Made by a program: the position numbers. A DNA stretch of 64,000 nucleotides from positions 1 to 64,000 of the forward strand of contig OY970343.1 in assembly GCA_963717525.1 (NCBI GenBank), read 5' to 3'. This document shows, one piece after another, positions 57,001-63,000 of the stretch; position 1 is the stretch's first letter; each line of letters opens with the position of its first letter. This stretch comes from an uncultured Methanoregulaceae archaeon (GTDB taxonomy: Archaea > Halobacteriota > Methanomicrobia > Methanomicrobiales > Methanospirillaceae).

Positions 57001-60000
57001 ACGCGTCGATCATGGCCCGGACCTCGTCTTCTGTCAGCATCTGGCCGGCGGTCTTGGTCATCCGGTCCGCTTTGGGAGCCCTAATCCCCTCAATCTTGTC
57101 GGCCGGCACGGACGAATATCCGTTCGCCCTAAGCCAGCGGAAGAACCGCTTGAGCAGGGTCAGGTGGTCTTTCAGGGTGTTCTGTTTATAGGGTATCCCC
57201 ATATCGCCGTGCCGCGCCTCCCGCAGAGCCTCGATCCCCCGATAGAGGTCGGCCACGGTGTCTGTTCGGAACGGCCCGATGTACTGCCGCCACGACACCA
57301 GGATATAGGTGAGTTTGTTGGCCCGCGAGACCCCGATGCCACCGGTAACCTTGATCTCCGCAATAAAGTCCCGGATCAACCGGGCATCATCGGCGGTGAG
57401 CTGGCCGGCCTGGAGGGCATTATCGATCGAATGCTCGGCATATACACTCTTCGCGTTATGAAACGGCCGTGCGTGCCGGTTAGGTGCCTGTTGAGTGCGT
57501 ATCATTGTCCCGGCACTTCGGTTACCGAAGTTAGGGAAAAACTTATCCTGAGAACCTGCCTGAGAAACGAATTTTGCAGGGAATTCAACCTGCGCGATAG
57601 AAGCCGCCGGAGGGACTTGAACCCTCGACCTGCTGATTACGAATCAGCCGCTATGCCGCTAAGCCACGGCGGCGCACTGCCTCACAATATCGACCTGTGC
57701 GCTAATAAAATCTGTGCTTGGCCGGATAATGTCAGAATCTAAGAATACCCGCGGAGTGTCGTTACGCTGTCGGGGGCATGGGGCTCTTTTGCCGGCGAGA
57801 TCGTCCCGAACTTCCCTTCGTAGTCGGCAACGGTCTTCTGGAGCACGGCGAGCAGGTTCTTTGCATGCGCCGGCGTGATGGAGACGATCGCCTTTGCCCG
57901 CGCCTGGTTGACCTGCGGGAGCTGGTGGAGGAAGACAAACGTGAATTCGTCATCCTTGTATGCAATCTGGATCATGTTGCTGTATACGGGATCCAGCGTT
58001 GGGGGGATATTGACGGATATTTCCTGTCCGGTCATACTGATCCGTTAGCCGTTTCTGGTATGAATAGTTGGTCACCCGCCTTGTGCACGAACCCGTTGTT
58101 TCCCATAAGTATATGTGGCTGTTTTTCCTCGATTCTTTAGAGGAATTATTCTGGCGGATCAGGAGAGGCATGTCACGATCTCTGACCTGGTGCGGGTGCA
58201 TGCCTGCCCGGTCCGGTTTTACTACGAGAAAAACGAACCGGTCACCGAATCGGACCGGTACGCAATCTGCAAGCAGCTCTCGTACCATCTTGGCCATCCC
58301 CTTGAAGCCGATGCCATCTGGGACGAGGTTCTCGCTGTCCGCCCGAAAACCGACCCGGCACTCAGGGAATTCCTGGACACGTGCATTGCTTCCTGCAACA
58401 AACCCGGGTGGACACCGGCGGCCCAGACCGACGTAACGGTGGTCTCGAAAAAACACGGGATCGCGGGCATGATCGACCGGGTGGCGGAGGACGGGACGTT
58501 CTCTATCGTGAGGGCGGCCGGTGCGATGCCTTTTGGCACCTACGCGGCAGACCGGCTCCGGATCGCGGGCATCGCGTTCTGCCTCGAAGAGATGACCGGA
58601 AAGGAGGTGGAAGGAGGCCACGTGGAGTATATCCCCGATGGCATATCCCGGTACCACGCGGTCCAGCCCCGGGACCGGCGCCAGCTCCTCGCGACGCTCC
58701 ACAGGCTCCGGGCTATTCACCGGGGCGAGGCGCCCTCACACCCGCTCAACGCCCCCTGCAACCGGTGCACGTATAAAGTGCGGTGCGAGGAGAGCGGCGG
58801 ACACCGGCTGAGCGAGCTGCTGTGAGAGGGGCACACCTTTGTTGCCCGGACATAAGGGTAGGTAAAAGGGGATCACCCCCATCCCCATTACCGCTCTGGA
58901 GGTTACGCGCCGGCATCAAAATGCATGAACCAATCCCCTTCAAGAAGGGTTTTGAATCCCCGACACAAACGTACTACGCAATCTCTCCGCACGACCGCAC
59001 CGGTCTTCCGGATCCCGGCAGGAATGAACATGACCCTCGCGAAAGGCTGTACTCTCTGTTACCAGGGCGCAAAGATGGTGCTCTTTGTTACGGGACGCTG
59101 CCGCCGCTCCTGCTGGTACTGCCCGCTTTCGAGCGAGCGGAAAGGAAAGGACGTGGTCTTTGCAAACGAGCGCCGGATCGAGGCCCCGGAAGAGGCAGTT
59201 TCTCTCGCTGAACGCATGAGCGCACTCGGGACCGGCATCACCGGTGGCGAACCGCTTCTCTGTATCGACCGGGTGAATGAATACAGTAAAGCCCTCAAGG
59301 ATCATTTCGGGAAAGAGCACCATATCCACCTCTACACGGCGCAGGCCCCGACAAAACCCGAGCTGGAACAGCTCGCCGGCCTTGTAGACGAGATCCGGCT
59401 TCACCCTCCCCGCGAGTGCTGGGATCATATCACTGATACGGACTATATTGCCTCTGCAAAAAATGCCAAGGAGATGGGCTTTGACATTGGCATCGAGGTC
59501 CCGGCCCTTCCCGGCCTTGAACTGCTCATCCCTGCCCTCCCGTACCTGGATTTCCTCAATATCAACGAGCTCGAATGGGGCGAGACCAACGCCGGTGAGA
59601 TGCGGGAGCGCGGCCACGAACTGGCCGACGGGGTACACAACGCTGTCAGCGGGGCCCGCGACTGGGCGGACGAACTTCTTAATCACGGCAAGGTCCACTG
59701 GTGCGCCTCGTCGTTCAAGGACTCGGTGCAGCTCCGGGAGCGCCTGAAGCGCATCGCGGAGAACACCGCCCGGCCCTTCGATGAGGTGACCGATGACGGG
59801 ACCATCGTCTACGGCGTGCTGGATCTCCATCCCGGCACCCGGGATGCTGTCGTCGCCCGGTGCAGGACATTTCTCACCGAGGATGAGTTCTCTGACTGCG
59901 GTGACCGGGTCGAGACCGCATGGTGGCTGCTCGAAGAAGTACAGGGACAGGATCCCCGGGAAAAAATCGGTGGTCGAGCGCTACCCCGATGGCGGCATGG

Positions 60001-63000
60001 TTGTCGAGGTGACGCCGCTGTGAATGTCCGCGGGCTTCTTGAACCGCTCTACGAGCGGTATCTCCTGATGCAGTGCCCGCAGATCCCTGTGCACATCGCC
60101 ATTATCCAGGACGGCAACCGGCGGTTTGCAAAAGAGACGGGCATCAAGACCGCGGACGGGCACCGGGCCGGGGCGGACAAGACCGAGGAGATGCTGGACT
60201 GGGCCCACGACCTGGGCATACGGTACATCACCATTTATTCGTTCTCTACGGAAAATTTCAACCGTACTGAAGAGGAAATCCGGGAGCTCTTCCGGCTTTT
60301 CAAGGAGAAATTCATCCGCACCATCTCCGATGAACGGGTGCACCGGTACCGGATCCGCATCCAGATGGTCGGCGACCGGTCGCTTCTTCCCGAAGATCTG
60401 CGGATAGCCATCGAGGCCGCTGAGGAGGCGACGAAGAATTACGACGGGTTCACCCTGAGTGTTGCGCTCGCATACGGGGGGAGAAACGAGATCGTCCTTG
60501 CCGCCCGGGAGATCGTTACCGCCGTCCGCGAGGGAACGATCGCTCCGGAGTCCATCGACCTCCAGATGGTTGAATCCCATCTCCATGAAGGAAAGGAGAT
60601 CCCGCCGGTCGATCTCATCATCCGGACCGGGAACCAGTACCGCACCTCCAACTTCCTGCCCTGGCTGGCAAACGGACATGAATCCGCGGTCTACTTCTGT
60701 GCCCCGTACTGGCCTCTCTTCCGGAAGATCGACCTGCTCCGTGCCATACGGATTTACGACCAGCGGCTGAGTGCCAGAACTCGTTAAACCGGCCCTCACG
60801 CTCAAGCAGTTCTGCGTTCAGTTTCGTGTACGATATTTCCCGGAACATACCAGAGGGAATAGGTGAACGTATGGGTGCGGGTAAGACTGCAGGACCCGGC
60901 TGGCAGCAGGTGCCGGTTCTGCTACGGTCCGATATCGTGACAGCAGCAGAGAAAAAACAACTGGATCTGAGCGAAGAATGCAACCGGGCGCTTGCAAAGC
61001 GACTGGAGATAGACTACCGGCCGCTCCAGAAGAGCCCCTCCCCGGGAACCCCGCGGGTGATCGTCGCGACGGATACCGCACCGGCCAGATGTACGGCCCC
61101 GGCAGCGCCGCCGGTCATCAATGCCGAGGATCCCACGGTGCCGGCGAAAGTTCTCAGGGAGAAAAAAGAGAGGAAATCCCCGGGAGTGGCAAAACCGCAG
61201 GAACCGACCCCATCGCGCCCGGCAATCCCCGTCCCTTCTACGGCAGCAGCAGCTGCGAAACCTTCGTCAAAGACCCGGGCAAAGGGCAGGAAAGGGGATG
61301 CCATACAGCGGTTCGTGAGCACCCGGATCGTCCGGGAGGCCGAAGAGAGTCCTGACGCTATCGTCGCAAAAGACGAACTCTACCAACGGTTTGAACGCTG
61401 GTGCCGGGACCAGGATTACGATACTATCCCGGAACGGCGCGTGTTTTCTGTGGCCCTCAAGAACAAGTACGCCTTTGCCGAGAGGACCGTGGGTGGGACC
61501 GCGAGCTGGGTCAGTATCCGGATAAAATAGTTTTTTACTTCCCGAACCGGCGTATCCGGGACTGGTAGTCACGCAGTACCCTCAGGAAGTCCACGCGCCG
61601 GAAATACTTCCAGTTGATATCGGAGAAGAAGAGTTCCGAGTAGACCGACTGCCAGATCAGGAAATCAGTCAGGTGGTCGCCGCCGGTCTTGACCACGATG
61701 TCCGGGTCGTACCGGAAGGTCAGGCAGGATTCGAGTGTTTTCTCATCGATCTCCGATGGCGGGATACCGTTCTCTGCCAGCCTGCGGATGCAGTCCGTGA
61801 TCTCCTCCCGCCCGCTTTTCCCTATGGCGACTACGACCTCGAGACCGGTACCCGAGATCTCCCTCGTGGTGCCGTGGTGCAGCACGAGCCGGGCAACCGA
61901 TGAGATCTTTTTTATTTCCGGGAGGGCATGGGCGAGCTCGTCCGGGGAGAGCTGAGTGATGTGGAACGTCAGGCCTTGGATGGCGGATGGTGTCTGTGCA
62001 GCTGCCTGCGTGGGCCGGTGTGCAAGGATTGTATTTAACCCGGTGCACCATCCGGTCACCTCGAGACACTTTCCCGGTTCAGCGGCCAGGTCAGCACTGC
62101 TGATCATGAAACAGATATGCCGGGGGAGGTCCTGTATCTGCGAGAGAAGCATCCGCTCGTAGAGCCAGTAGAACATCTGACCTAATCGTAGGGCAGCCAA
62201 GGTTATGAGGATTTACTCTGCCATTCCGGTTTACCCGGGATGTGCGTTCCGCTCTTCAGCTGCGGGGCCGGCGTCCGGCAAAAGCACTTATAAACCTTCT
62301 TGTGAAATGATCAGACAACAGATGTACTCCTATAAGACTGGTATCCCCCAGATCGATCAGGCGACCGGGGGTTTTGATGCGGGGACGAACCTCCTGATTC
62401 TGGCACCGTCTCTCAGCTATGCAGAAGCACTCGCGTACAGCCTGATACGCCCTCTGCCCGGGGAGTATGCTATCATGTTATCCACAAACGAGCGTGCCTC
62501 GGAGGTGATCGACCAGTTCAAGTCCGCCGGGGCCGACAAGCAATTCGTCGGCGTGATCGACGCGATCACCAAAAGTTCGACGCCGGCAGTCTCCGACACC
62601 GAGCGGTTCATGTTTGTCACGAACCCCACCGACCTGACCGGGATCGGCATCAAATTCTCCCACATGGTCGAGATGATTTTTGACGGGACATTCTCCGGGA
62701 AAGAGACCGGGCTTTTCCCGCCCCCGATCCGGTTCTGCATCAACTCGGTCTCGACCCTTCTTATGTACCGCAAGCTTGAGGTGCTGTACCAGTTCCTCCA
62801 CGTGATGACGGCAAAACTCAAGAAGGTCGAGGGCTTTGGGGTCTACATTCTCAACTGCGAGGCATTTGACGAGAAGACGGTTTCTTTAATCAAGCAGCTT
62901 ATGACGATCGTGATAGAAGTCAAGGTCGAACGATCGGACAACTACTTCCGGGTGATGGGGATCCGTGGGGTAAACGCGGACTGGCACAAGTTCACGATCA

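Follow-up and report, generated by a model that had tools for sequence, protein, structure and literature searches.

The 585-residue gene called on the forward strand at 59030–60787 is almost certainly not a real gene: a single superfluous base in the assembly has joined two genuine, overlapping genes, one for a radical-SAM protein, probably of the DUF8061 family, and one for an UppS-type cis-prenyltransferase (cis-PT). The fuller account, in which an assembly artefact conceals a true gene pair and the radical-SAM enzyme tailors the carrier lipid that its neighbour helps to build, is the one we consider rather probable as a whole. The window (the entire 64,000-nucleotide stretch that was analysed) comprises contig positions 1–64000, with coordinates to be taken literally; nothing resembling the radical-SAM–UppS frame occurs at 27030–28787. 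Its relevant features are as follows:

59030–60787, forward strand: called 585-aa ORF P0001, most probably a two-gene chimera via one extra base, found on a single contig
59030–60023, forward strand: gene of the radical-SAM protein, probably of the DUF8061 family; 330 aa in its natural form, with stop TGA at 60021–60023 in the +1 frame
59937, forward strand: extra A in GAAGAAG, which shifts the frame; omitted in contigs of runs X1, X5 and X9, in alignment A1 and in P0275
60020–60023, forward strand: GTGA, where the UppS start overlaps the radical-SAM stop
60020–60787, forward strand: UppS-type cis-PT catalytic subunit, 255 aa, with DGNRR and without a C-terminal RXG
60635, forward strand: private difference, C versus G, giving Q for E at ORF residue 536; G in 4/4 runs
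60826–61530, forward strand: 234-aa ORF with a Pro/Ala-rich middle, belonging to no family
61535–62200, reverse strand: accessory cis-PT-like protein P0272, 221 aa, ending RRFGK (RXG), from profile match and motifs

The extra base and the 585-residue frame

As deposited, the sequence does carry the single ORF that the survey's finding described, starting at ATG 59030 within an open frame of 58925–60787. The A at 59937 is nevertheless missing from the contigs of all three public runs that cover it (X1, X5 and X9, from three studies), each of which spans the whole stretch; a fourth run has no cover at this position, and the three are not fully independent, since the assembly itself may derive from one of them. 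Proteins from the same species tell the same story: P0275 (330 aa, on 28 contigs) agrees with the window's ORF at every residue from 1 to 303 before continuing in the +1 frame, and P0274 (255 aa, on 30 contigs) matches the UppS half at 253 of 255 positions, set against one contig for the fused form. With the extra A in place, the last 27 conserved residues of the radical-SAM protein (YRDRIPGKKSVVERYPDGGMVVEVTPL) fall out of frame; relatives end in ...WWLLEEYRDKIPGKKSVVERYPDGGMVVEVTPL, and the +1 frame of the window yields that same tail. It is because the covering runs lack the base, and because the separate 330- and 255-aa forms recur on many contigs, that we attribute the 585-aa gene to assembly, as the survey had suspected when it proposed a frameshift confined to this contig. 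The source population is a Methanoregula-like methanogen that keeps two separate genes; the radical-SAM gene measures 994 nt here on account of the additional base, and UppS begins at residue 331 of the ORF (GTG 60020) rather than at residue 336, where it had been placed. An A6 run at 59961–59966 was considered as the site of the frame break and discarded, the break being the extra A at 59937.

Were the insertion instead a true one in this strain, the product would be a real fusion, either bifunctional or damaged. The unbroken ORF and the nature of the change (AA to AAA in GAAGAAG, with no long homopolymer, which is less typical of sequencing slips) speak for such a fusion, and yet it is very improbable: besides the evidence of the runs and contigs, it would cost the protein 27 conserved residues, among them the invariant E together with the Y-like position and the P of an ERYP motif; the same assembly carries a second private difference (60635) some 700 nt from 59937; and no fused form has been found elsewhere. 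On this last point, none of the best 120 hits (out of 1484) and none of 132 loci contained a radical-SAM–UppS fusion, and proteins of 579–2000 aa included two relatives, neither with a Prenyltransf domain. Among the 150 matches listed out of 162, open frames of at least 585 aa occurred only in the window's genome and in G179, the latter rejected as a fusion since its length reflects a spurious N-terminal extension. The survey's three further genomes with both halves in a single open frame were thus not reproduced, either in the listed matches or in the long-protein search. Because of the chimeric record, radical-SAM and UppS proteins now share a single 90% cluster, for which an annotation flag is warranted. 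The genome is a single contig of 2.29 Mb with a completeness score of only 87%; different frameshifts interrupt the radical-SAM gene in other long-contig metagenome-assembled genomes (L004, L061).

The paired proteins and a predicted accessory subunit

On its sequence, the first protein is a member of the radical-SAM superfamily, probably of the uncharacterised family DUF8061/COG2108. The Pfam Radical_SAM domain (PF04055) matches residues 20–118 at 39.6 bits (gathering cut-off 29.5), and the CX3CX2C motif (C24, C28 and C31 in GRCRRSCWYCP) is conserved in alignments A1 and A2, with haloarchaeal-type members having CX4CX2C instead. C7, C10, H223 and C225 are also conserved, as are many basic residues. 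Of the 120 relatives listed, 119 carry DUF8061 (PF26257) as a precomputed domain, which appears in Atlas clusters too; in the window's ORF as deposited, the final 27 residues of this domain lie out of frame. In all, 991 relatives were counted among 50% clusters at E<=1e-3, one fewer than the survey had reported. The family is single-copy and highly conserved, being present in 162 of 201 sampled genomes of the phylum, and a literature search found no paper on it. The best NCBIfam match is HxsC at 28.7 bits, far under its cut-off of 267.9, in keeping with the claim that this half has no NCBIfam name; the viperin (NF038283, 16.7 bits against 180), Tes (NF045702, 16.5 against 450) and PFLA (TIGR02493, 17.5 against 231.75) families were likewise rejected.

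The AlphaFold model is confident (pLDDT 96.1) and, as had been noted, matches generic radical-SAM folds only, with Z scores of 16.7 for viperin (rmsd 3.5, 217 residues aligned), 15.3 for NifB and 14.6 for the PFL-activating enzyme (PFL-AE; Foldseek E 1.5e-6) over the TIM-barrel core, residues ~2–246. With viperin and PFL-AE the protein shares an N-terminal CX3CX2C, a GGE-type SAM motif and a partial TIM barrel; identity is 9–16%, family models score well under their cut-offs, and the protein has in addition the conserved C7, C10, H223 and C225 as well as a ferredoxin-like C-terminal domain of 84 residues. That domain has no informative structural match (best Z 5.5), none to RNA-binding folds above Z 5.5, and the structural matches of fold and C-terminal domain alike offer no clue to the substrate.

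The second protein is recognised securely by Prenyltransf (PF01255; residues 359–579 of the ORF, 227.6 bits, cut-off 27) and by TIGR00055 uppS (1.5e-68, against 1.6e-68 as first given; 230.6 bits, cut-off 109.55); the Pfam domain boundaries of both halves are those given in the survey. It carries IIQDGNRRFA, in which D31, G32, N33, R34 and R35 are invariant across 43 sequences; DGNRR is the catalytic N-terminal motif of cis-PTs. Its C-terminus (...YDQRLSARTR) lacks RXG, found instead on the paralogue P0272, which lies convergent to UppS 0.75 kb downstream, covers profile positions 109–219 only and, where the DGNRR region would be expected, reads HICFMISSADL. An RXG at the C-terminus of the catalytic chain is described, in the available text of PMC8131916, as a trait of the homodimeric bacterial-type UPP synthase; the absence of RXG from the catalytic chain here led us to reject that assignment. 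The two proteins are, as judged from their motifs, the catalytic and accessory halves of a predicted heteromeric cis-PT. Since the genome holds no further PF01255 gene, they should jointly supply the polyprenyl diphosphate from which the dolichyl-phosphate glycan carrier is derived. Archaeal enzymes of this kind are reported in the portions available of PMC8131916 and PMC13586052 for M. mazei (MM_1083/MM_0618) and A. fulgidus (Af1219/Af0707), to which the present pair is likened by motifs and copy number, each genome having two cis-PT paralogues, one catalytic and one accessory; those portions make no mention of a radical-SAM neighbour. A cis-PT was found in 199 of 201 genomes, nearly always in two copies (including 23/23 in family f15). 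The 234-aa ORF between UppS and the accessory gene is kept in Methanoregula-like loci only (20 loci).

Conservation of the neighbourhood

Within Methanomicrobiales the pairing is close to universal: UppS lies directly 3' of the radical-SAM gene in 59 of 60 loci, overlapping it by 4 nt (NTGA) in 50 and by 1 nt in four, and the accessory homologue is convergent in 45. The 4-nt overlap implies, on gene layout, that translation of the two is coupled. The survey's picture of same-strand neighbours across Halobacteriota holds for this order, and far less well beyond it, where only 21 of 51 loci, in five of 14 families, have a same-strand UppS no more than 1 kb away (by genera: f7 5/7, f8 9/9, f9 2/2, f10 2/2 and f14 3/3), usually with DUF2551 in between. 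No UppS was found within 7 kb downstream in 28 of these 51 loci (nine of the 14 families). In four further families, adjacency to UppS gives way to a short-chain trans-prenyl synthase upstream of the radical-SAM gene; this IdsA-type enzyme sits immediately upstream, with a gap of 1–9 nt, in L072, L080 and L128, and 0.7–2.9 kb upstream in f13 (3/6), f21 (5/5) and f24 (4/5). No prenyl synthase was found near the gene in f16, f22, f23, f28 and f30, and the remaining neighbours vary from lineage to lineage.

The radical-SAM gene is missing from 39 of the 201 sampled genomes, 37 of which retain a cis-PT; the enzyme is thus dispensable for cis-PT and for carrier-lipid synthesis as such. DUF2551 and UppS remain adjacent in all seven genomes that lack the radical-SAM gene and have both positions listed, so that the adjacency to UppS could be inherited from an old operon layout and say nothing about what the radical-SAM enzyme does. 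Class-I lysyl-tRNA synthetase is no looser a neighbour than UppS where it occurs, lying directly upstream (<=32 nt) in 22 loci (f8 6/9, f16 3/3, Methanomicrobiales 13/60), from which it follows that the operon mixes functions. It is worth adding that a single ancestral arrangement probably underlies the retained adjacency, and lineages therefore do not count as independent.

Possible roles of the radical-SAM enzyme

The persistence of this neighbourhood hints that UppS and the radical-SAM enzyme serve the same lipid. A role in polyprenyl or dolichol metabolism, probably in tailoring the carrier lipid, is accordingly a proposal that we hold tentatively, the link being one of guilt by association. 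In such a role the enzyme would bind a [4Fe-4S] cluster at C24, C28 and C31, cleave SAM to a 5'-deoxyadenosyl radical and abstract hydrogen from a substrate held by a putative second metal site (C7, C10, H223, C225) and the conserved basic residues. That substrate would most likely be a polyprenyl (di)phosphate from the adjoining synthase, modified possibly at the alpha-isoprene unit.

Against this must be weighed a quite possible, if on balance doubtful, alternative: that the operon is old and real, and that the radical-SAM protein is a housekeeping enzyme (for example a modifier of RNA or protein) merely sharing a promoter with lysS, DUF2551 and uppS. Bacterial uppS itself shares a conserved cluster with genes for translation, to which it is functionally unlinked. 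The lysyl-tRNA synthetase directly upstream, spread over three groups, fits such an enzyme well, as do the cis-PT pairs in genomes devoid of the radical-SAM gene, the nine families with no nearby UppS and the persistence of DUF2551–UppS where the radical-SAM gene is absent; a single-copy, near-universal and highly conserved gene is typical of housekeeping functions, and conserved basic residues would equally suit a nucleic-acid or nucleotide substrate. What tells against a housekeeping role is that the recurrent neighbours are two non-homologous prenyl diphosphate synthases and an accessory cis-PT whereas others turn over, that the 4-nt overlap with uppS suggests selection for coupled expression, and that the C-terminal domain resembles no RNA-binding fold above the Z score already given. 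That the protein activates or matures a partner protein such as the cis-PT complex, on the model of PFL-AE, is scarcely credible: the database name 'PFL activating enzyme-like', the PFL-AE fold match and a cluster motif placed near the N-terminus, as in activases, recommend it, but the PFLA family score is far too low, the conserved CxxC/HxC site and the DUF8061 domain are both absent from activases, and cis-PTs are not known to include a glycyl-radical enzyme.

The genes of this conserved radical-SAM family adjoin those for making the carrier lipid used in archaeal protein glycosylation and, if carrier-lipid tailoring is indeed the function, the family becomes a concrete candidate for dolichol finishing, notably alpha-saturation, a matter treated as unsettled in PMC10821996. 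There, a Haloferax GGR mutant is reported still to alpha-saturate its dolichol, which leaves an open step in dolichol finishing; the eukaryote-type polyprenol reductase family (PF02544) occurs in only four of 201 genomes, leaving gaps unfilled. Radical-SAM chemistry offers no obvious route to the reduction of a double bond. A specific reaction at the alpha unit is improbable, and it seems equally unlikely that the DUF8061 protein is a dedicated glycan-carrier tailoring enzyme (acting on the polyprenyl diphosphate that the cis-PT heteromer releases and perhaps, in methanogens and haloarchaea, modifying the alpha-isoprene unit as polyprenol is converted to dolichol) kept beside prenyl synthases for that reason. 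Should the link prove only positional, the family would still rank among the more widespread unassigned radical-SAM enzymes, spanning methanogens and haloarchaea.

Archaeal isoprenoid lipids are the substrates of several radical-SAM enzymes, GrsA/B and calditol synthase among them. Together with the Tes (GDGT-MAS) enzymes these offer a possible working likeness, namely hydrogen abstraction from an unactivated isoprenoid carbon, although the present protein is not a member of the Tes family (NF045702) and all of those lipid enzymes are bigger and carry additional cluster domains; the GDGT-MAS core aligns with our model at Z 13.9.

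An artefactual joined frame

The source genome comprises one contig of 2,288,003 bases (completeness 87%, contamination 2.2%), of which the window covers positions 1-64000 and in which an open frame at 58925..60787 (+) holds the called ORF P0001, with an ATG at 59030 and a length of 585 aa; no comparable ORF was found when the window was checked at 27030-28787. Within it, Pfam places Radical_SAM at residues 20-118 (39.6 bits vs a cut-off of 29.5) and Prenyltransf at residues 359-579 (227.6 bits). The second half matches TIGR00055 uppS in NCBIfam at 1.5e-68, and the first half, bearing the iron-sulfur cluster motif C24-x3-C28-x2-C31, scores at best 28.7 bits in NCBIfam vs a cut-off of 267.9. 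To this extent, as a 585-aa ORF with both domains at 59030-60787, the survey's finding stands. The joined gene itself is an artefact and no real feature, replaced by two overlapping genes and their neighbours:

59030..60023, + strand: radical-SAM gene (rSAM), 330 aa, stop TGA at 60021-60023
60020..60787, + strand: UppS, 255 aa, GTG start at 60020 overlapping the rSAM stop (GTGA)
60826..61530, + strand: ORF without family match, 234 aa, with a Pro/Ala-rich linker
61535..62200, - strand: second cis-prenyltransferase (cis-PT)-like gene (protein P0272), 221 aa, convergent to UppS

Three kinds of evidence agree on this artefactual fusion of a real pair, as the survey had suspected. Firstly, every one of the best 120 among 1484 database relatives found with the 585-aa ORF is 323-390 aa long, covers 46-55% of that ORF and bears a Methanoregula name; in the alignment these relatives end in WWLLEEYRDKIPGKKSVVERYPDGGMVVEVTPL, from which the window sequence diverges after LLEE, and the window's +1 frame past LLEE gives YRDRIPGKKSVVERYPDGGMVVEVTPL and then a stop. 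Secondly, four public sequencing runs from four studies were compared over the stretch, one of them (X12) without cover of 59915-59973. The contigs of three runs span the whole stretch and differ from it by a single mismatch (C>G at 60635) and a single gap: the base at 59937 is absent from the contigs of 3/3 runs covering that spot, runs that are not fully independent because one may be the assembly's own source. Thirdly, an exact-sequence look-up places the 585-aa protein on a single contig, namely this one, and, in the same 90% cluster, the 330-aa protein on 28 contigs and the 255-aa protein on 30. The former equals window residues 1-303 identically and thereafter the window's +1 frame; the latter agrees with the UppS half at 253/255 residues, the differences falling at the start codon and at the residue that position 60635 encodes. 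The C-terminal domain would, moreover, lose 27 conserved residues to the frameshift, the ERYP motif among them, and a genuine fusion in this strain is very improbable.

An A6 run at 59961-59966 was ruled out as the slip site, as alignment and reads put the slip at 59937. The rSAM gene is differently frameshifted in other long-contig MAGs (loci L004 and L061). The assembly error also has a consequence for the database, where the chimeric 585-aa record merges radical-SAM proteins with UppS proteins in a single cluster at 90% identity (P0001/P0002).

Natural fusions were sought more widely, the survey having reported one open frame in three further genomes, and these could not be reproduced. No joined rSAM-UppS frame occurs in any of the 132 loci examined. 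Among 150 matches listed of 162 in the phylum search, open frames of at least 585 aa are confined to this genome and G179, and a search confined to proteins of 579-2000 aa yielded just two relatives, of 608 and 655 aa, whose only domains are DUF8061 and Radical_SAM. The long frame of G179 is ruled out as a fusion, its upstream extension being without homology, and long rSAM frames elsewhere (up to 692 aa) are likewise spurious upstream extensions. Seven long database members checked (422-655 aa) showed no further Pfam domain. Among members of 485-655 aa, P0256, P0298, P0215, P0205 and P0228 show similarity to the query in two or three discrete blocks, with insertions that carry no Pfam domain.

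A putative heteromeric cis-prenyltransferase

UppS and the second cis-PT-like gene are the only PF01255 genes in the genome. The second protein fits the C-terminal half of the profile only, carries HICFMISSADL in place of UppS's HIAIIQDGNRRFA and ends in RRFGK; the UppS C-terminus is without RXG. Judged from these sequences, UppS together with a catalytically dead, RRFGK-ending paralogue would bear the signature of a heteromeric cis-PT, of which 61535..62200 likely encodes the accessory subunit. Archaeal heteromeric cis-PTs are described, in PMC8131916 and PMC13586052, from M. mazei (MM_1083 + MM_0618) and A. fulgidus (Af1219 + Af0707), and the likeness to the present pair lies in the apparent catalytic and accessory subunit signature. 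Across the phylum sample, cis-PT is present in 199/201 genomes, nearly always as two matches. A complex prediction for UppS and rSAM returned a score of 0.00, which carries no verdict either way.

The 234-aa ORF between UppS and the accessory gene is conserved in 20 Methanoregula-like loci only. Beyond the accessory gene, 62205-64000 (+) encodes a DUF7504/DUF7090 protein and then a KaiC-like ATPase with a 4-nt overlap, a pair kept downstream in Methanoregula loci.

Distribution and neighbourhood of the radical-SAM family

At E<=1e-3 the rSAM family numbers 991 clusters, of which 267 remain at <=1e-30, with named members in Methanoregula, Methanosarcina, Methanoperedens, Halococcoides, Methanohalarchaeum and Theionarchaea, among others. 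Genome searches with our own family alignment (A2) found it as a single copy in 162/201 phylum genomes, its presence being all-or-none by family; in this 201-genome search it was not found in families f11, f12, f15 (0/23), f17 (0/4), f18-20 and f25-27.

Linkage to UppS is tightest in Methanomicrobiales, where UppS directly follows rSAM in 59/60 named loci, the contig of the 60th stopping inside the rSAM gene. Fifty of these junctions are 4-nt NTGA overlaps, four are 1-nt overlaps and five are other, and the accessory cis-PT gene lies convergent within the flank in 45/60 loci. In Methanosarcinales-type genomes, UppS is <1 kb away in 3/20 named loci and farther downstream in two more. Sampling outside Methanomicrobiales (51 regions, one per genus, 14 families) placed UppS on the same strand within 1 kb in 21/51 regions, comprising 5/7 in f7, 9/9 in f8, 2/2 in f9, 2/2 in f10 and 3/3 in f14, and 0/28 regions from f13, f16, f21-24 and f28-30. 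A DUF2551 gene of ~100 aa lies between rSAM and UppS in 35 linked loci outside Methanomicrobiales (L071, L072 and L089, for example); in the present genome DUF2551 is at C1:332473-332718, 270 kb from the rSAM-UppS locus.

Lineages without UppS adjacency have a short-chain IdsA-type trans-prenyl synthase near rSAM instead. In three loci, among them L072 of Ca. Methanoperedens, it lies 1-9 nt upstream, in the order IdsA, rSAM, DUF2551 in one direction:

L072:7045-7962: IdsA-type short-chain trans-prenyl diphosphate synthase, Methanoperedens-like genome
L080:7071-7985: the same, Methanoperedens-like genome
L128:8032-8946: the same, Methanoperedens-like genome

Elsewhere the synthase is 0.7-2.9 kb upstream, past a divergent DUF373 gene (f13 3/6, f21 5/5, f24 4/5). 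Overall, a prenyl diphosphate synthase gene of one of two non-homologous kinds lies <3 kb from rSAM in 15/20 rSAM-bearing families, and other neighbours (Nre, aminotransferases, eRF1, M50 protease, FeoAB, others) vary from lineage to lineage.

With this recurrence must be weighed what weakens the link between rSAM and UppS, and the somewhat less likely alternative that this link is only positional. A class-I lysyl-tRNA synthetase lies directly upstream of rSAM in 22 loci (f8 6/9, f16 3/3, Methanomicrobiales 13/60), and the operon therefore mixes functions. Furthermore, cis-PT is still present in 37/39 sampled genomes without rSAM, and where both positions are listed in rSAM-lacking genomes, DUF2551 lies ~140 nt upstream of cis-PT in 7/7, so that UppS adjacency may be an inherited operon frame. 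Nor do DUF2551 and rSAM strictly co-occur: DUF2551 is present without rSAM in f11, f17, f18, f20, f25 and f26, and within the phylum sample was not found in the rSAM-bearing f13, f16, f21, f22, f24 and f28, a distribution that rules it out as an obligate rSAM partner. DUF2551 looks like a winged-helix domain, its profile matching PDB entries at E>=0.044 only (sub-threshold), and the papers found on DUF2551/PF10826 state no function. The adjacency of rSAM and UppS is most simply read as one ancestral arrangement retained, not as many independent gains.

The radical-SAM protein and its possible role

An AlphaFold2 model of rSAM (50-sequence alignment; pLDDT 96.1, pTM 0.90) has a radical-SAM partial barrel at residues ~2-246, resembling viperin (Z 16.7), NifB (15.3), PFL-AE (14.6) and GDGT-MAS (13.9). 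The top Foldseek match is PFL-AE (E 1.5e-6), the whole-model fold search returned generic radical-SAM cores only, and the rSAM profile matched MoaA only (4e-6) among PDB sequences. Modelled alone, the last 84 residues form a ferredoxin-like alpha/beta unit (pLDDT 95), for which no match was informative (best Z 5.5, no Foldseek match at E<=0.001). Complete or near-complete conservation in the family alignment extends beyond the cluster cysteines to C7, C10, H223 and C225 and to the basic residues K15, R123, K230, R238 and R241; this conservation suggests a site for an anionic head group and a further site that binds a metal or cluster. In haloarchaeal-type members (L114, L123, L130-L132) the canonical CX3CX2C is replaced by CX4CX2C (GYCDQRDCFYCP).

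With the artefact, the two-gene structure, its overlap and the conservation pattern established, the survey's functional prediction for rSAM is plausible and unproven. The enzyme would cleave SAM at its [4Fe-4S] cluster and abstract a hydrogen atom from a substrate held via a phosphate-type head group. Should that substrate be the polyprenyl (di)phosphate made by the adjoining UppS, rSAM would serve to tailor the dolichol-type carrier. We advance a role in polyprenyl or dolichol metabolism tentatively, as something a little short of probable; a reaction at the alpha-unit is improbable. According to PMC10821996, a Haloferax GGR mutant retains alpha-saturation, a step without an assigned enzyme. 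The eukaryote-type polyprenol reductase family PF02544 occurs in 4/201 genomes only, a distribution unrelated to rSAM absence that speaks neither for nor against complementarity. The rSAM family is already catalogued as DUF8061 (PF26257) and COG2108 but unstudied; a literature search lying largely outside subscription journals returned nothing on it, alone or in connection with dolichol, polyprenol reductase, undecaprenyl diphosphate synthase or PFL-activating enzyme, nor does the Haloferax open-issues paper mention it.

Elsewhere in the window, a XerA-like tyrosine recombinase/integrase gene in 56282-57673 (-), encoding 407 aa with a zinc-ribbon tail, adjoins tRNA-Thr(CGT) at 57602-57673, the signature of an integrated element. 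The stretch 47988-52809, upstream of it, holds genes for pilin-like, PilB/T2SSE ATPase and PKD-domain proteins; GC content varies here between 0.43 and 0.56. A tandem repeat at 4906-5428 has a 201-base unit in 2.6 copies with 81% matches, and the window's first 2 kb have a GC content of 0.385 vs about 0.6 alongside.
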